Positions 10,429 through 17,551 of a stretch of 32,000 bases of DNA are shown piece after piece. The notes beneath the pieces are model-generated. The model was not told the DNA's origin. It saw nothing but the letters and a program-made list of their open reading frames with translations, and did no database searches. Within the stretch, counting starts at the first letter, position 1. Every line of letters starts with the position of its first letter. The translations under genes and the position numbers were made by a program. The stretch lies in assembly GCF_041929235.1 (NCBI RefSeq), contig NZ_JBHFNP010000022.1, positions 97,330 to 129,329 of the forward strand, given 5' to 3'. Source of the stretch: Microseira sp. BLCC-F43 (GTDB lineage Bacteria > Cyanobacteriota > Cyanobacteriia > Cyanobacteriales > Aerosakkonemataceae).

Positions 10429-11688
10429 ATGGCGAGAAATTGGTTGCGCGTCAATCATGTAGCAAATACGATCCAAATTTCCTGGCAACGCGGACAATCA
10501 ACCCCTCGATCTGCTCCAGAAGTAGCATTTCAACACCCTTTTGACGAGCAAGCACTGACAGATTTGCGGTGGTATTTAGAACAATACCTGCGCTTTCCCT
10601 ACGGACTTGAACCCCAAAAAGCAGAACAGATAGAACAGAAATTGCAAGCTTGGGGACAGCAACTATTTGACATCATCTTCCGCAGCAGCGAGGAAGCGCG
10701 GACATTTTTTCAGGAGGCGACGCGAGAAGGGCTAGATCGATGCGAACTCAGTATTATTTCGGATGAACCGGAGATACTTAATTTACCTGGGGAATTGCTG
10801 TAATCGCCGGATTACCAATTTCTCGCGCCGTTGCTGGCTGGAACTTACCGCAGTCTCAGCAGTTATGCCGTGCGGGCAGAAATGGGGGCAATGTCGGATG
10901 AGAAGTTAAATATTTTACTCGTTATCGCGCGACCTTATGGTGAGCAGGATATTAATTTTCAAACGATTGCCCGTCCGGTGCTAGAAGCGCTGCAACCGAT
11001 TCGGCAGCAGGTGAATCTCAAGGTATTGCGTCCCCCTAGTTTAAAGCAGTTTGAGGCAGAACTTCAGGCGCATAAAGGGTTTTATCAAATCGTCCATTTT
11101 GACGGACATGGGGATTTTGAAGCGAATAGCAAAACCGTTCAAACTCAATATGGAAAATTGGGACAAGGGATTTTAGTCTTTGAAGATGCAGAAGGCAACC
11201 CGGAAATTGTCACCGCTAGGGAGATTGCCCAATATTTAACCGATTGTCGCGTCCCGATTTTTCTGCTGAATGCTTGCAAATCGGGACAAGCGGGAGAAGA
11301 ACCCTTTTCATCGGTGGCGGGACAGTTGGTGAAATTGGGTGCCAAAGGCGTGGTAGCAATGGCTTATTCTGTCTACGCGGAAGGGGCGAAACACTTCATG
11401 GCACGCCTGTATGGGGAATTGGTGCGGGGGGAAAGCATCGCCAGTGCTGTAGCGGCGGGGCGGAAATCCATGTCCATCCAGAAGCTGCGCCCCAGTCCCA
11501 AGGGCGATTTACCGTTGCAAGATTGGCTGGTGCCGGTATTGTATCAGCAAGAACCTTGCACGCCGTTTACTCCTAACACTGCACCGCCCAGCTTTTTAGA
11601 CTTAATCAACGCCGCAGAAAACGCCCAATCCAAAATCGGCGTTCCCAGGCAGGAGCCAGGGAACGAGTTAAAATCCATCTTGGTTGAT
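10429..11688 (+). pseudogene. 5' part of a CHAT (caspase-like peptidase)-STAND-TPR gene; contains an in-frame TAA at 10801-10803 and is truncated by an IS insertion
   Basis: ORFs 10429..10803 and 10831..11751 are both in frame 1, separated by a single stop. CHAT His/Cys dyad context IVHFDGHG and FLLNACKSG. The N-terminal DLRWYLEQYL region is typical of this family. The last ~20 codons of the second ORF read into the IS left end. Confidence 0.75.
11641..11664. repeat. Small palindromic insert GTTCCCAGGCaggaGCCAGGGAAC inside the CHAT-NTPase linker (translated VPRQEPGN)
   Basis: 10-bp stem with one mismatch and a 4-nt loop. Related to the GCCAGGGAA/TTCCCTGGC palindrome at 10265-10286. Confidence 0.6.
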
Positions 11689-13040
11689 TTACCGAAAATT
11701 TTGGGTTTAAAGCCCCGCACTTCAGGGCGGCTTTTAGAATCTATGCTATAATCTTATCAGAGGATAAAACGATAAGAATGATTGTCTACGAAAGCAAATT
11801 AGAAGGAGAACAAAACCAGTATGAAAAGCTCGACGGGGCTATTCGTACTGGTCGTTTTGTTCGTAATTCTATTATTCGTGCTTGGATGGATAATCTAATC
11901 AAAAGTCGTAATGATGCTTATGCCTACTGTAAAACTCTAGGGGATAATCCTAAATTCCCTTGGGCTAAACAATTAAACTCTCAAGCCAGACAAGCTCATG
12001 CTGAGAGGGCTTGGGCTTCAATTGAGCGTTTTTATCATAATTGTAGAGCAAAAACACAAGGGAAAAAAGGATACCCGAAGTTTAAAAAATATCAAGTTAG
12101 AGACTCGGTTGAATACAAAGTAAGCGGTTGGAAATTATCAGAAGACCTCCGCTACTTAACATTCACCGATGGATTCAAAGCTGGAACTTTTAAACTTTGG
12201 GGAAGTAGAAACCTTCACTATTATCAACTAGAACAAATTAAGAGAGTTAGAGTTGTTAGAAGACATGATGGTTATTATGCACAATTTATAATCGACCATA
12301 AACGGGAGGAAAGTAAAGAATTAACGGGTAGGCAAATTGGCTTAGACGTTGGGTTAAATCATTTCTATACTGATAGTTTTGGTCAGAAAGTTGATAATCC
12401 TAGATTTCTGAGAAAAGACGAACATAGAATCAAAAAACTACAGCGTCGTCTCTCTAAGACAGAAAAAGGTAGTAAAAATAGAGCCAAAGCGAGAACTAAA
12501 TTAGGTAGAGCGCATCTCAAGGTATCACGCAGACGTAACGACTGGGTTTGTAAATTAGCTCAGCACGTCATACGGTTTAACGACTTAGTAGCAGTTGAGA
12601 ACCTAAAAGTGCGTAATATGATTAAAAACCACTGTCTAGCTAAATCAATATCTGATGCTGCATGGTATCGTTTTCGAGAGTGGTTAGAGTATTTTGGCGT
12701 TGTGTATGGAGTTCCAGTAATAACTGTTAATCCAAAATATACAAGTCAGAATTGCTCTAATTGCGGACAGATAGTGGTTAAAACACTAAGTACCCGTACC
12801 CATAAATGTCCTGATTGTGGTTATGTGGCGGACAGGGACGAAAATGCAGCATTGAATATTTTAAAAGCAGCCTTGAAAGAATGGGCAAATACCGTGGGGC
12901 GCACGGAATTTGAAGTCTCTGGAGAGATTCCCCTCTGTTTGAATCTGGAAACAGAAACAAATAAGGGAACTCGAAGAAAGAGAAAACCTAAGAAGTGATT
13001 CTTAGAATCTCCGCGCGTTCACGCCGGAGAGTACGTCAAC
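11689..13040 (+). mobile_element. TnpB-only IS200/IS605-family (IS1341-like) element; no tnpA
   Basis: Candidate target/TAM TTGAT at 11684-11688. Related imperfect subterminal hairpins at 11709-11734 (LE) and 13008-13030 (RE). Shared 9-mer TTAGAATCT at 11734-11742 and 13002-13010. RE ends ..GTACGTCAAC. The region appears AT-richer by eye than the flanks. Boundaries are uncertain by a few nt. Confidence 0.7.
11778..12998 (+). CDS. tnpB: RNA-guided endonuclease TnpB (IS605 OrfB family)
   Basis: RuvC-I IGLDVGLNHF, RuvC-II VAVENLKVRNM, zinc finger CSNCG...HKCPDCG, RuvC-III DRDENAALNI. All catalytic residues are present. Confidence 0.9.
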   Translation: MIVYESKLEGEQNQYEKLDGAIRTGRFVRNSIIRAWMDNLIKSRNDAYAYCKTLGDNPKFPWAKQLNSQARQAHAERAWASIERFYHNCRAKTQGKKGYPKFKKYQVRDSVEYKVSGWKLSEDLRYLTFTDGFKAGTFKLWGSRNLHYYQLEQIKRVRVVRRHDGYYAQFIIDHKREESKELTGRQIGLDVGLNHFYTDSFGQKVDNPRFLRKDEHRIKKLQRRLSKTEKGSKNRAKARTKLGRAHLKVSRRRNDWVCKLAQHVIRFNDLVAVENLKVRNMIKNHCLAKSISDAAWYRFREWLEYFGVVYGVPVITVNPKYTSQNCSNCGQIVVKTLSTRTHKCPDCGYVADRDENAALNILKAALKEWANTVGRTEFEVSGEIPLCLNLETETNKGTRRKRKPKK

Positions 13041-13056
13041 GGAAGTCAGCGCCTAT
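12850..13056 (+). ncRNA. Predicted omega-RNA (reRNA) scaffold overlapping the tnpB 3' end and RE, plus a ~16-nt flank-derived guide (13041-13056 GGAAGTCAGCGCCTAT)
   Basis: By analogy with characterised TnpB systems, the scaffold spans the 3' end of tnpB and the RE hairpin (13008-13030). The 5' boundary is not determinable by eye. Confidence 0.4.
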
Positions 13057-15156
13057 GGCTTTATCGGGCGAGGTTACGACATTTTGCGCTTAGAACGCGC
13101 TTTTCGCCAAAATTATGTGGTGCTGTTGCAGGGGATGGGCGGGGTTGGCAAAACCGAGTTAGTAGGGGGATTTGCTCGCTGGTTGGATGACACCCAGGGA
13201 CGCACGGGGGGCATTTTCTTCACTAGCTTTGAGCGCGGTGCGGGGTTGAGTCAGGTGGTGAATCAAATTGGCAGAAGCTTGGGGGGTGAGAAATTCGCCC
13301 AGTTAAAGCCAGAACAACAGCAGGCGGTGGTGCGACAATACTTGCAAACCCATCCTTGTCTGCTGATTTGGGATAACTTTGAACCCGTCAATGGGTTTCC
13401 CGCCGGAAATCTGCCATTGTTACCCGCCGCCGAAAGAGAAGAATTGAAGCGGTTTCTCAAAGAATTGCGCGGGGGGCAAACTTGGGTACTAATTACCAGT
13501 CGGCGGGAAGAAGGTTGGTTAGATTGCGGTTACGCGCTGCTGAGTTTGAAGGGACTGGTAAAACAGGATGGGGAAGAGTTAGCGGCGAAGATTCTGCAAT
13601 CAGCGGAGATAAACCGGGCGAAACTGCCAAAAGAATATCTGGAGTTGCTGAAACTATTGGGGGGACATCCCCTGTCCTTGCGGGTGGTACTGCCTCACCT
13701 GAAAACCCAGACACCCGTGCAGTTAATCGAGGCATTGCGGCGGGGATTGGATACGTTCAAGGGTGCAGAGGAGGAAGGTAGAGAGAAATCTTTGCTGGTG
13801 TCGCTGGATTATTCGTTTGCGAAGTTGTCGGAACGGGCGCGGCAGCATTTGCCGTTTTTAGCGCTATTTTCTGAGCGAGTGGATGCAGGTTTCCTCCATC
13901 TTTTGTCGGAAAGTTCTGATAATCAGTTTGGACAGGCATATTGGGCGGTGTTTGGAGAAAACTTGCAGAAGCCCGATTGGATGGGATTGCTCAAGGAAGC
14001 CGCCGCCGCAGGGATTGTAGAACATTTGATGGGAACTATCTACAAAATTCACCCAGCACTGCCTTGGTATTTGCGACAACAGTTAGATACAAAAGGTTCG
14101 CAGGAGGTAATCAATAGCCTAGAAAAAAAGTTGCTACTTTTCTACGCAGAGTTGGCAGATATCTACCATGAGGAACTCATCAGCAATGCGGAATTGGCAA
14201 CCTTTGCGCTGCGAGTAGAAGAGCCGAACCTATTGCAGCATTTACGACTGGCAGAACAGCAGCAGGATTGGGGTAATGCCAAATTTATTCTGACAGCCTT
14301 GGCAGAGGTATATACACGATGGGGGCGCAAACCAGAATTTAAGTCCCTGCGAGAACGGGCGCTGAACCAAATTGGTATCCACTTGGCACAAGCAAAGGCA
14401 AAGGGACGAAATGCCTTTGATTTCTGGATTTATCTGCGGGGAGTAGATGCAAATGAAGCTTTTAAAAGTGCCGACTTGGAAACAGCAAGAGCCTTTTATC
14501 AAGAAATTCTGGATGAATTGACAGCTTTAAATGACCCCTCCGTCAATGGCAATATCGCCTCTTTTAATCACAATCTTGGCTATATTGCCCAAAGGCAACG
14601 ACGGTTTGACGATGCGATCGCTTTTTACAATAAAGCTCTCCAAATTAAAGAAGATGCGGGGGCTTTCTACAGTGCTGCTAGCGACTATCACCATCTAGGA
14701 ATGGTAGCCGAAGATCAACGGCGGTTTGACGATGCGATCGCTTTTTACAATAAATATCTCCAAATTTATGAAGCTGCGGGGGATGCTTACATGGCTGCAT
14801 ATCCCTGTAAGCTTTTAGGAGAAATTGCCAAAGATCAAGGAGATTTTGAGACTGCTGTTGCCTATTTCCAAAAAGCATTTGAAGCCTTAAGTTCAGCAAA
14901 TGATTGGCACAACGCATCTTTAACCCTAGTTGCATGGGGCGAAACCCTGGAAGCCCAATCAAATTGGACTGAAGCCGCGAAAATTTACATCCACGGCTTG
15001 GTCATCGAGGTTAAGCATAATAAAGAGTGGATTGGCTGGTATCTCAAAAATTTAAGGCGAATGCTCAAACAGTTGGGAGACAGCCAATTTGCCACAATTT
15101 GGCGCGAGGTAATAGGCGAAGAATTGCCAGAAGAATGGCGTTCAGTTATTCAATAA
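13042..15156 (+). pseudogene. 3' part of the same gene: NB-ARC-like STAND NTPase plus TPR array
   Basis: Same frame as the CHAT part. FIGRGYDILRLERAF lead-in, Walker A GMGGVGKT, Walker B CLLIWDNFE, LITSR and GGHPLSL motifs, then ~40-aa TPR-like repeats. The first in-frame start after the IS is a TTG at 13084. Confidence 0.75.
14596..14780 (+). repeat. Near-identical 120-nt-spaced intragenic duplication of a TPR unit (QRRFDDAIAFYNKxLQI)
   Basis: 14603-14634 and 14723-14754 are identical over 32 nt. The flanking sequence is similar. Confidence 0.8.
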
Positions 15157-15187: not shown

Positions 15188-15649
15188 GTGGAAACCCAAT
15201 TAACCACCCCCGAAGTCAACGAAAAACGGCAGCTATTGCAAGATTACGAACCCGCTGCCGAGGCATTCGCCATCCTGGAAGAACAGCAAGGCAGACTCGA
15301 TCTTAGTTTTGACGAACTGTGGGCAAAAAAAACAGGTCAAGTGTTTGAAGATCCCAGCAAACGCCAATCCCTCTGGCAAACCACGCTGCAAGTCCTGCGC
15401 CAAGAACTCTGCGGCGATGAAGGCTTTCGCGCCCAATTCAAAGAATATACCAAAAACCCAGGCAGCGCCCCTTTACTCACCGGTTTAATTGTTTCCCTCA
15501 CCACCCTATCCGGCTTGCCCCTCGACCCGGCAATTTCGACGATTATTGTGTTGTATCTGCTCAAAATTGGCTTGAATATCTTTTGCGAATATACGGAATC
15601 TGCGAGTAATTCTGATGGGTCTGGGAGTGCTGATTCACAGGGGAAATGA
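15188..15649 (+). CDS. Hypothetical protein with a hydrophobic C-terminal region; GTG start
   Basis: AGGAG lies ~10 nt upstream of the GTG. Starts 31 nt after the TPR gene stop. C-terminal hydrophobic stretch LLTGLIVSLTTLSGL...ISTIIVLYLLKIGLNIF. Confidence 0.6.
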   Translation: METQLTTPEVNEKRQLLQDYEPAAEAFAILEEQQGRLDLSFDELWAKKTGQVFEDPSKRQSLWQTTLQVLRQELCGDEGFRAQFKEYTKNPGSAPLLTGLIVSLTTLSGLPLDPAISTIIVLYLLKIGLNIFCEYTESASNSDGSGSADSQGK

Positions 15650-15692
15650 GGAGAGAATTAACCAAGTTGCTAGGGAAAACGATCCCCCCAAA

Positions 15693-15711
15693 CCCCCCTT
15701 GCCAAGGGGGG
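15693..15711. terminator. GC-rich hairpin CCCCCCTTGcCAAGGGGGG between convergent genes
   Basis: Perfect 9-nt inverted repeat. No clear U-tract on either strand. Confidence 0.4.
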
Positions 15712-15731
15712 CTTAAGAGAGTAGTATGTAG

Positions 15732-15758
15732 GGTGCGTTAGCGATCGCGTAACGCACC
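15732..15758. repeat. Dispersed palindrome GGTGCGTTA-gcgatcgcg-TAACGCACC (preceded by ATGTAG)
   Basis: A related copy lies at 24412-24442 (TATGTAGGGTGC...TAACGCACCAT). Confidence 0.7.
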
Positions 15759-15772
15759 ATGCTAACTACACG

Positions 15773-16045
15773 TTACCGTCCCGATTTCCTGGTCGATGAA
15801 TCGGTGGCAGGTTGCTTCCGGTAGCGAATGAGAATTGTCATCACCAAATCGGTTTTGGGTAATGGCGTCAAGGGACTCCATTCATCCACCTGGGCAAATC
15901 CGATAGCGTAAAAATTCTTGATTTCTTCGATTACTCCTTCGCGGGTACCGATAATCAGAAACCGAATCGGTTCGCGTTCGGGCATTTCTGGCGAGGAATT
16001 TTCACGCACAGATCCGATAGCATCAGACAAAAACTCTTGTGCCAT
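15773..16045 (-). CDS. Small conserved-looking hypothetical protein (90 aa)
   Basis: ATG with an AGGAGA Shine-Dalgarno sequence 8 nt upstream. Composition looks like a globular protein (IRFLIIGTREGVIEEIKNFYAIGFAQVDEWSPL). Confidence 0.7.
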   Translation of the reverse strand: MAQEFLSDAIGSVRENSSPEMPEREPIRFLIIGTREGVIEEIKNFYAIGFAQVDEWSPLTPLPKTDLVMTILIRYRKQPATDSSTRKSGR

Positions 16046-16077
16046 GATATTTTCTCCTATTTTTTGGATGGGAAACC

Positions 16078-16120
16078 AAAAAATCTAGCCACCCCGCAAG
16101 CAGCGCAAAGCAGGGTGGCT
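16078..16120 (-). terminator. Intrinsic terminator on the minus strand, ~30 nt upstream of the 90-aa ORF start
   Basis: RNA reads AGCCACCCUGC-uuugcgcugcuu-GCGGGGUGGCU, an 11-bp stem with one G-U pair, followed by AGAUUUUUUGG. Confidence 0.75.
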
Positions 16121-16440
16121 ACAGAGAGGTGTTAAAATGCTCTGTTAGCCTCCAGACTGATTTTGGCAGTGTGGGGGTCAAGCTGTCCTTTGCCGCTTCC
16201 AACGGCATAGGGCAGCGTACTAGATTTTTAGGCGGACACGGGTTGCTGTGGTTGAACTCAACCAACCTTAAAGAGAGAGCATAGCCCGATTGGGGACAAC
16301 AGTCAAGATAATAGTTGATTTCGTTACGAAACTTTAGATGGTGGGGCGAATTGCTCGAATTGCAACAAGTTTGAGTTTGCAGTAATACAACATTATTGCC
16401 GGGACACGGCAGTCGAAGAATTTTCGCTGACAACAAAACT
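16121..16440 (-). promoter_or_regulatory. Structured leader / candidate riboswitch-like attenuator, or an independent sRNA (class unknown)
   Basis: Antiterminator helix 16114-16153 (GGAGGCUAACAGAG / CUCUCUGUAGCCACC) overlaps the terminator 5' arm. A 13-bp hairpin lies at 16183-16215. No upstream minus-strand gene could feed this terminator. Confidence 0.5.
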
Positions 16441-16756
16441 TACTTTAGCCTTTAGTCCCTACCTGGCGTTGATTTGAATGAAGAAAGAAGGAAGGGATGC
16501 GATCGCTTTAATTTCATACACCATATTTTACTATATTTGGGTAATTTATAATTCAAAAGCTTTTTTCAGTAAAATATTGCGTCATATTTATGTATTTCAG
16601 TTGATGGTTTCGCTTCGTTGATAGCCCGCCCGCAAATAAATCATCAACCAGAATATGATTGGCAACAGCATCATATTGTTGACGTTCCCTACGAGGAACC
16701 ATCGGGAATTAATTGGATATGATATAACAAGTAGATAACCAACAGCGAGGATTACT

Positions 16757-17551
16757 ATGCCATCCCCATTTCCCGGCATGAACCCTTATTTAGAAGCTCC
16801 TCAATTATGGCCCGATGTCCATCACCGACTCATTACAGCCATTGCTGACTTGTTAGCCCCTCAATTGGAACCTAAATATATTGTCGCAATTGAACGCCGA
16901 ATTTATGAAGTTATAGACGAAACACCTCTATTAGTAGGACTGCCCGATGTCATGGTGCAGCGTTCTACAACTACTCCAGAGCAAACAAATACTAATGTCG
17001 CTACTTTATCACCTCCAGCCCAACCAATTACAGTAACAGTTCCCATACCCGAAACTGTGGGACAAGGTTATTTAGAAATCCGCCTAGTGGGAAGCAATCA
17101 AGTCATCACCGCTATAGAAATTCTCTCGCCTGTGAACAAGCGACCGGGGAAAGGGCGGGAAACTTACGAAGCAAAACGGCAAAATGTTCTGACTAGCTTA
17201 ACCCATTTAGTAGAAATTGATTTACTGCGCCAGTGGCAACCAATGCCAATTTTAGAAACCAATATTAAAAGCCATTATCGCATTTTAGTTAGCCGCAGAC
17301 AACGCCGACCGCTAGCAGATTTATATGCGTTTAATTTACAAAATTCAATTCCAACATTTCCCTTACCTTTATTACCAGGCGATGCCGAACCTATCATCGA
17401 TTTGAAAGCATTATTAGATTCAATTTACGACCGCGCCGTTTATCGCTTGCAAATCAACTATAACAACGAACCCATACCCGCCTTGACCGAAGCAGATGCA
17501 ACCTGGGCAGATCCACTATTAAAAGAACAGGGAAACAGAATTGCAGATTGA
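16757..17551 (+). CDS. DUF4058-like protein (PD-(D/E)XK nuclease-fold candidate)
   Basis: Characteristic N-terminus MPSPFPGMNPYLE..LWPDVHHRLI. PDVMV, IEILSPVNK and VEIDLL motifs resemble the D...ExK arrangement of Uma2-type proteins. Confidence 0.7.
   Translation: MPSPFPGMNPYLEAPQLWPDVHHRLITAIADLLAPQLEPKYIVAIERRIYEVIDETPLLVGLPDVMVQRSTTTPEQTNTNVATLSPPAQPITVTVPIPETVGQGYLEIRLVGSNQVITAIEILSPVNKRPGKGRETYEAKRQNVLTSLTHLVEIDLLRQWQPMPILETNIKSHYRILVSRRQRRPLADLYAFNLQNSIPTFPLPLLPGDAEPIIDLKALLDSIYDRAVYRLQINYNNEPIPALTEADATWADPLLKEQGNRIAD

Follow-up and report, generated by a model that had tools for sequence, protein, structure and literature searches.

We analysed a 32,000-nucleotide (nt) stretch of the genome of the cyanobacterium Microseira sp. 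BLCC-F43 (contig NZ_JBHFNP010000022.1, positions 97,330 to 129,329), hereafter the window, focusing on the 5' leader of a gene for a small protein of 90 amino acids (aa). Judged from its sequence, the minus strand carries a self-contained module of ~570 bp that comprises a promoter, a structured RNA of ~195 nt, an intrinsic terminator, a Shine-Dalgarno (SD) sequence, and the 90-aa open reading frame (ORF). The best-supported interpretation is that the leader attenuates transcription in cis and represents a new sequence family. The parts of the module outside the RNA were as follows:

16301-16306, minus strand: −35 hexamer TTGACT of the module's sigma-70-type promoter (promoter scan; conserved in alignment A2)
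16278-16283, minus strand: −10 hexamer TATGCT, 17-nt spacer, predicted start at ~16271-16268 (promoter scan, alignment A2)
16053-16058, minus strand: SD sequence AGGAGA (GGAGAA invariant in 51/51 aligned copies)
15773-16045, minus strand: 90-aa ORF of an uncharacterised cyanobacterial small-protein family, ATG at 16045
15684-15720, minus strand: terminator-like hairpin at the end of the module mRNA (terminator scan)

The SD sequence and the start codon highlighted in an initial annotation of this DNA were found at 16058-16053 and 16045, respectively. That annotation had also placed the start of the transcript at 16440-16560, which the comparison of copies did not bear out. This stretch is common only to true orthologues and is not conserved among paralogues, whose similarity begins only at ~16340, just upstream of the −35 hexamer (BLAST of the upstream region). 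Further, each of the 27 protein-anchored copies that were compared carried TTGAC ~262 nt 5' of its ATG. Because the promoter at 16306-16278 is conserved and paralogue similarity begins just upstream of it, transcription most likely starts near 16270; the leader RNA would then be ~195 nt long rather than 360-480 nt. The ~195 nt between promoter and terminator held no credible ORF on the minus strand. The ~270 nt preceding the ATG were 80-90% identical at the DNA level even where the paralogous proteins shared only 63-68% of their amino acids (BLAST), and the conserved unit extended from just upstream of the −35 hexamer to the stop codon.

Only ~32 nt separate the U-tract of the terminator from the ATG. 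As this leaves no space for a separate promoter, expression of the 90-aa gene should depend on read-through of the terminator. The hairpin at 15720-15684, with 17 pairs and a U-rich tail, is probably the mRNA's own terminator. It is locus-specific, since paralogue similarity stops at the stop codon of the ORF. A palindrome around a HIP1 site (GGTGCGTTA-CGCGATCGC-TAACGCACC) lies directly 3' of the ORF, within 15684-15765 on the minus strand, and is absent from the paralogous copies.

Helices and alternative folds of the leader RNA

The structure model was derived from RNAalifold, single-sequence folding, and manual inspection, all of which agreed. The 195-nt RNA had a folding z-score of −3.5, and its single-sequence fold reproduced the comparative model. 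An independent repeat search recovered three inverted repeats: the terminator stem, a 13-nt long-range repeat (I1), and a U-tract/A-tract hairpin (I3). The helices of the model were:

16241-16267, minus strand: P0, 5' hairpin GGUUGGU ... AGCAACC (minimum free energy (MFE) and centroid folds; 88% of cells paired)
16220-16232, minus strand: 5' arm CCUAAAAAUCUAG of P1, the long-range closing helix (I1; MFE of the terminated RNA)
16182-16216, minus strand: P2, long hairpin whose internal loops are conserved and whose end loop varies (compensatory changes in 9/14 pairs)
16149-16177, minus strand: P3, hairpin of segment 1, CCCCC (16177-16173), with GGAGG of segment 2 (16153-16149); ACUG/CAGU stem, variable loop
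16114-16153, minus strand: P4, hairpin GAG.../...CUC with a conserved loop, whose extension GGAGGCUA:UAGCCACC gives the antiterminator (segments 2:3)
16078-16121, minus strand: P5, intrinsic terminator of segment 3, UAGCCACCC, with segment 4, GGGUGGCUA; stem 16121-16086, then GA and U6 (16083-16078)
16076-16088, minus strand: 3' arm CUAGAUUUUUUGG of P1, overlapping the terminator foot and its U-tract
16060-16083, minus strand: P6, hairpin of U-tract plus GG with CCAAAAAA, just upstream of the SD sequence and mutually exclusive with P1

The intrinsic terminator described in the initial annotation, ~30 nt before the SD sequence and ATG, is present at 16121-16078 and conserved. Its stem, UAGCCACCCUGC / GCGGGGUGGCUA (16121-16110 with 16097-16086), contains 12 pairs, one of them G-U. 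The G+C-rich stem-loop has a predicted energy of −23.4 kcal/mol and was conserved in all copies: the lower 8-9 bp were invariant in every copy, while the upper stem and loop differed completely between clades and yet remained paired. A tract of U6 (U5-U6 in relatives) follows a 2-nt GA spacer, which is at the limit of the usual. A simple terminator scan alone did not exceed chance, yielding 3 sites in 2.5 kb versus 3.1 expected, so the case for the leader rests on conservation.

The 12-bp competing helix at 16153-16114 was likewise recovered, as GGAGGCUA / UAGCCACC plus CAGAG / CUCUG, at −13.3 kcal/mol. Four segments of the leader are conserved: segment 1, CCCCC (16177-16173); segment 2, GGAGGCUA (16153-16146); segment 3, UAGCCACCC (16121-16113); and segment 4, GGGUGGCUA (16094-16086). 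Pairing of 1:2 and 3:4 produces the terminator, and pairing of 2:3 the antiterminator. In the nascent RNA (positions 1-165), the MFE structure contains the 2:3 antiterminator. The MFE structure of the full RNA is the 1:2 plus 3:4 terminator fold, at −72.0 kcal/mol. Forcing 2:3 gave −70.2 kcal/mol, a cost of only 1.8, because CCCCC then pairs with GGGGU of segment 4. In these predictions the antiterminator geometry suggested initially holds: the two folds are mutually exclusive, nearly isoenergetic, and co-transcriptionally plausible. As the lone terminator hairpin (−23.4 kcal/mol) is more stable than the antiterminator (−13.3 kcal/mol), these energies indicate that termination should be the default outcome.

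The pairing logic, 1:2 and 3:4 versus 2:3, is that of trp-type attenuators. Unlike those, the leader has no conserved leader peptide. A leader-peptide sensor was considered and rejected, as the sole frame across segment 1 is broken by single-base indels and by variable loop lengths between copies; ribosome stalling is therefore not the sensor.

Covariation was assessed in two alignments, A5 (MAFFT, 51 sequences) and A7 (model-based, 98 distinct sequences). In A5, double-sided changes occurred in 19 of 62 pairs, compared with 13.6 ± 1.7 in shuffles (0/500 as high) and 5-8 in slid-partner controls. The corresponding values for A7 were 21 pairs and 145 cells, versus 76.8 ± 5.7 cells in shuffles and 6-10 pairs in slid-partner controls. 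The comparative alignment of upstream regions thus revealed helices conserved in >100 loci with compensatory changes above both controls; together with the folding z-score, these are the lines of evidence that exceed chance. Because the sequences split into two main clades, changes were also counted within clades. There were 8 compensatory pairs in P2 in the Microseira-like clade and 4 in the second clade; the numbers for P0, in which the compensatory changes include U-A to C-G, were 3 and 1. Within the Microseira-like clade, P1, P3, P4, and P5 had 3, 2, 3, and 1, respectively. These within-clade changes provide good sequence support for P2 and P0 as real RNA helices, P2 being the strongest. 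P2 (16216-16182) is the 13-bp upstream hairpin of the initial annotation.

The remaining helices varied less. P1 (16232-16220 with 16088-16076; 13 nt, 92% complementary) was paired in 91% of cells. Its pairs were mostly invariant A-U, with double changes at 3 pairs and one pair that is an A.G mismatch throughout the second clade; as an RNA helix, P1 is plausible. The CCCCC:GGAGG pairs of P3 were invariant, an extra C accompanying an extra G in 6 of 24 protein-anchored sequences. Seven pairs of the antiterminator were also invariant. One pair at its foot changed from A-U to G-C in 2 sequences of A5, which preserves 2:3 and breaks 3:4, and this is the sole covariation bearing on the antiterminator. 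P6 corresponds to I3 (9 nt, 100% complementary) and was lengthened compensatorily in relatives (GGGUUUU/AAAACCC).

The hairpins near the ATG differed between clades. The U-tract and GG(G) pair with an A-tract and CC(C) beside the SD sequence, which is left free in Microseira-type copies. At locus L072 and in the second clade, this 5' arm instead extends to include an anti-SD, CUCUU, such that AGGAGAACCCC is sequestered at −13 to −15 kcal/mol. From this predicted pairing, these copies appear to carry a second, translational lock.

These data also bear on a DNA-level origin of the signal, according to which the region would be either a coding stretch (the 105-aa ORF across the leader, 16119-16436) or a small mobile repeat bounded by inverted repeats. 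Although I1 flanks the core and many of the metagenome copies are found at the ends of contigs, as is usual for repeats, the unit is bounded by the promoter and the stop codon rather than by I1 and was never found without the gene, in contrast to a miniature inverted-repeat transposable element. Moreover, the compensatory changes inside hairpins indicate selection at the RNA level. The 105-aa ORF is present here, but it has no family match and its frame is destroyed by single-base indels between copies, and we rejected it as coding. The DNA-level reading is largely refuted, and we give it almost no weight.

Distribution of the RNA and its small protein

A covariance model was built from 51 non-redundant copies of the leader. 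It detected exactly one copy in the window, at 16043-16275 on the minus strand with 217 bits. Scores of 165-236 bits were obtained in every locus of two subfamilies of the small-protein family for which the upstream region was present, >100 related loci in all. More distant family members gave no match to the model. Consistent with the initial view that the RNA belongs to no known family, Rfam 15 returned 0 matches at the gathering threshold over the whole window; at a relaxed E-value, positions 15500-17000 gave only two spurious sub-threshold matches, both to eukaryotic families.

Searches were also performed with a pattern of the three most conserved boxes, GGAGGCT ... AGCCACC ... GTGGCTAG. 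This pattern had at least 120 matches in metagenome contigs and none in viral contigs; nor was the module matched in the phage, viral-contig, and plasmid DNA that was searched. In 48 of 52 complete box matches, a member of the same protein family followed 38-50 nt on, including a very divergent 95-105-aa subfamily (MIEMF...EQMRILLISSPTWV...). The other four were chance matches in unrelated DNA. Among all fetched loci, 106 gene copies had the three boxes upstream, and every one of them is a member of the two subfamilies. Where the strict pattern failed, the copy was one base off, or a partial protein match had misplaced its start and the RNA was still visible. The only gene copy of the two subfamilies found to lack the leader RNA, L073:7802-8095 (minus strand), has an in-frame TAG and no start codon, and is thus a decaying pseudogene. 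The RNA was found only before these two subfamilies. Close relatives of the 90-aa product occur in Microseira and related Oscillatoriales; Microseira wollei NIES-4236 holds approximately nine copies, and other genomes 2-4.

This tight association weighs on the idea of an independent trans-acting small RNA (sRNA) that merely lies upstream of the ORF and is ended by the terminator. In favour of this idea, the leader comes with a promoter and a terminator of its own and folds compactly and stably, with its ends paired. However, the RNA was never found apart from the gene, the gene copy that lost it is a pseudogene, and the ORF has no room for its own promoter and so needs read-through. The conserved alternative pairing and the P6 and SD hairpins further tie the RNA to the ORF, and we judge an independent sRNA to be very improbable.

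The switching segments were the most invariant part of the RNA. This was also true of 24 copies reached by protein alone, in which the three boxes were equally invariant and P0 and P2 varied freely. Such invariance of the switching segments is unusual for the expression platform of a riboswitch.

The body of the 90-aa product is acidic, and its C-terminal tail, RYRKQPATDSSTRKSGR, is basic. A family profile search yielded 464 clusters (50% identity) with a core of ~55 aa, REPxR-hLhIGS-xxGV-x-hIxxLhxxGFAE-xxEWSPLhP-x-NPGEVMSILTR. AlphaFold predicted a confident beta-alpha-beta core, with a predicted local distance difference test score (pLDDT) >90 for ~44 residues. No match to the protein was found in Pfam, NCBIfam, PADLOC, PHROGs, or the PDB searched by sequence, and a Foldseek comparison of its fold with PDB and BFVD produced no significant match; the best results were weak ACT-like resemblances (E ~0.3). 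In the RNA-linked proteins, the Arg/Lys-rich C-terminal tails have a median charge of +4 (e.g. RYRKQ...TRKSGR, TRRRQRP) and the bodies of −6; the tails of six RNA-less proteins were ~0 to +3.

Two further features of the proteins were noted. Microseira-type proteins end in a conserved (T/S)RKSGR (alignment A1; here 15773-15790, minus strand). This end resembles, without being identical to it, the RGSGR/RGTGR motif at the C-terminus of PatS, HetN, and PatX, peptides that act in cyanobacterial pattern formation. In addition, a 580-aa metagenome protein (P0126) with a TIR domain and WD40 repeats carries the small-protein domain at its extreme C-terminus, representing either a fusion or a gene-calling artefact.

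RNA-less family members occurred in two arrangements. In the first, ~110 nt separate the gene from a divergent XRE-type helix-turn-helix (HTH) gene, and this spacer contains two palindromic repeats that resemble operators. The two repeats are near-identical (e.g. TGTCGCAnATTTGCGACA twice) in the ~110-nt spacers of L015-L017 and L153, and judging from sequence are probable operators of a dedicated repressor. In the second, found on Nostocales plasmids, the gene lies beside ParG/replication genes or a divergent HTH gene. The loci were:

L015:2890-3000, L016:2890-3000, L017:2880-2990, L153:1391-1500, and L154:1386-1500: divergent XRE/HTH_3 gene, RNA-less
L156:1619-1918 (Trichormus variabilis plasmid D) and L157:2309-2689 (Scytonema plasmid5): family members on small plasmids, one beside ParG and a replication gene, the other beside a divergent HTH gene

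As these RNA-less relatives carry a dedicated divergent XRE repressor gene, the gene seems to need tight control of its own.

Proposed control of the module and comparison with known systems

We estimate at about 60% the probability that the 5' leader is a new cis-acting attenuator RNA whose effector is a macromolecule rather than a metabolite, most likely the encoded protein itself. A macromolecular effector is favoured because the RNA is tied to one gene family, because the switching segments are its most conserved part, because sister subfamilies use a dedicated repressor protein, and because the RNA-linked proteins acquired arginine-rich tails. In the proposed mechanism, transcription would start near 16270 from the conserved promoter at 16306-16278, and the RNA would fold into P0, P2, P3, and P4, after which the four conserved segments would form a classic attenuator. 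With 1:2 and 3:4 paired, RNA polymerase would stop at the U-tract (16083-16078), and the U-tail of the released RNA would be tucked into the long-range helix P1. With 2:3 paired, and segment 1 free or paired to segment 4, the antiterminator would let transcription continue into the 90-aa gene. Transcripts that pass the terminator would additionally be locked, in one clade, by the SD-hiding hairpin. The switch would be flipped by a macromolecule, most likely the encoded protein through its Arg/Lys-rich tail, such that the module is autoregulated or, alternatively, abundant terminated RNA holds the protein in check.

Several observations weigh against this interpretation. The start site, termination, and read-through are all predictions from sequence, and the 2-nt GA spacer ahead of the U-tract is less than ideal for an intrinsic terminator. 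The antiterminator and P3 pairings, and also the terminator foot, are almost wholly invariant, so that covariation neither supports nor refutes them. The clades are few, and shared ancestry inflates the covariation cell counts; when all columns were scanned against each other for extra pairings or pseudoknots, the differences between the two main clades swamped the result. From locus L033 onwards, the invariance of the boxes is partly a product of the search, as they were the pattern by which those loci were found. Finally, the predicted fold of the small protein has no significant match, RNA binding by the protein is a supposition of the model, and the contrast in tail charge is based on just six RNA-less examples.

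The main competitor, close to the riboswitch-like attenuator of the initial annotation, is a metabolite or ion riboswitch of a new class, in which P1-P4 would be the aptamer and the ligand would select between antiterminator and terminator. The leader is indeed a conserved, structured domain with covariation. Its complex fold of several helices, in which many bases of the junctions and loops are invariant, its predicted terminator/antiterminator platform, and the SD sequestration added in one clade, a dual control seen in riboswitches, all suit that description; the lack of an Rfam match would make the class new. Orphan riboswitch candidates similarly combine a conserved multi-helix leader, covariation, and an intrinsic terminator with a downstream gene of unknown function. 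In contrast to these, the RNA precedes only one uncharacterised gene family, never transport or enzyme genes, and each of the 2-9 copies in a genome stands before a paralogue of that one gene. Around 78 copies, no conserved partner gene was found, only an integrase remnant in a subset. The "expression platform" is more conserved than the putative sensor helices, and the dedicated repressor in RNA-less relatives suggests module-internal control as opposed to metabolic sensing. The predicted attenuator geometry of the initial annotation stands, while its riboswitch label is unproven: the single gene family and the conserved switching segments point to a macromolecule, and we consider a metabolite or ion ligand unlikely.

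Protein-dependent antitermination by the BglG/SacY/LicT family operates on ribonucleic antiterminator (RAT) hairpins; where a protein recognises the competing hairpin, the sequence of that hairpin is typically highly conserved. Like a RAT, the internally looped hairpin formed by P4 and its extension (16153-16114) is conserved, overlaps the 5' arm of the terminator, and competes with it. Unlike RAT systems, the module has no linked CAT-PRD regulator and no sugar-utilisation context, and the beta-alpha-beta core is not a CAT domain.

The layout has a precedent in RCd22/abiF of Clostridioides difficile, in which a sigma-A-type promoter, a structured non-repeat noncoding RNA, and a Rho-independent terminator precede a promoterless gene expressed by read-through (PMC12373285). 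The short terminated RNA is the major product (short forms 88-115 nt, full transcript 132 nt), and the RNA both attenuates and binds its protein; the RNA-protein interaction and toxicity are proven (PMC12373285). The Microseira module shares the layout and the tie of an RNA motif to a single protein family. However, its leader has no sequence or structure match to the abiF-motif RNA (RF03085) and its proteins, of 76-105 aa, lack an Abi_2 domain, which places it outside the abiF-motif family. Its RNA is also larger (~195 nt), with an explicit four-segment alternative pairing; binding and any toxicity, proven for RCd22, are predictions for the Microseira module.

Gene order invites comparison with type III toxin-antitoxin systems as well (ToxIN, CptIN, TenpIN). 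In a type III-like toxin-antitoxin or abortive-infection module, excess terminated RNA would bind and neutralise a harmful small protein supplied by read-through. The order promoter, RNA, terminator, promoterless protein gene is that of ToxIN and RCd22/abiF, with the terminator setting the RNA:protein ratio. The module is small, multi-copy, dispersed, and associated with mobile elements: transposases or toxin-antitoxin genes are frequent neighbours, as is a decayed integrase fragment in one clade, and plasmids carry some of its relatives. The basic tail of the protein also fits, as does P1, which would shield the free RNA at its 3' end. However, the antitoxins of type III systems consist of tandem repeats, which an endoribonuclease toxin processes (PMC8860590), and the repeat search revealed no tandem or direct repeats in the leader. 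The protein matched no toxin or defence model in PADLOC, Pfam, NCBIfam, or PDB, showed no recognisable nuclease of the ToxN/AbiQ type, and is half the size of ToxN-type toxins, and phage and viral collections gave no match. Divergence of the paralogous proteins alongside nearly identical RNAs does not fit the specificity of cognate pairs, and the toxicity of the small protein is an assumption of this account. Membership of classical type III systems is thus not supported. A type III-like mode of action is possible, although we rate the account as a whole slightly below the riboswitch.

More tentatively, the structured, non-repeat RNA may both gate transcription of, and be directly bound by, its arginine-tailed mini-protein, which would constitute an unrecognised two-part system of cyanobacterial mobile or accessory DNA. 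We find this doubtful as a specific claim, if somewhat more probable than a riboswitch. Either protein-driven antitermination feedback or a new RNA antitoxin would fit such an RNA-protein system, the XRE repressor doing the same job in sister lineages. There is a credible chance that the system is of a type not yet described in cyanobacteria.

If the leader is indeed such an attenuator, it would represent a new, well-populated class of structured RNA, with >100 copies, several per genome in mat-forming filamentous cyanobacteria and none in Rfam. It would also provide the first functional handle on a widespread, unannotated cyanobacterial small-protein family. The swap between RNA leader and XRE repressor across sister subfamilies would amount to a natural experiment in the control of the same gene, and the invariant four-segment switch is compact and could perhaps be reused as a regulatory part in cyanobacteria.

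Genomic surroundings of the module copies

In the second clade, a frameshifted remnant of a tyrosine recombinase C-terminus of ~116 aa (...TTMIYTHVLNRGG) precedes many copies in the same orientation, with ~50 nt between its end and the RNA. As the remnant precedes so many copies, a larger segment was duplicated in this clade. It was located as follows:

L131:452-798, L051:2839-3185, L151:3052-3398, L122:6880-7155, and at least 14 further loci: recombinase remnant

In the window itself, positions 10831-15156 on the plus strand contain an IS605-family TnpB gene (11778-12998; OrfB_IS605 and Cas12f1-like TNB domains). The gene sits between a CHAT-domain ORF (10831-11751) and a TPR ORF (13084-15156), which look like one CHAT-TPR gene split by the TnpB insertion.

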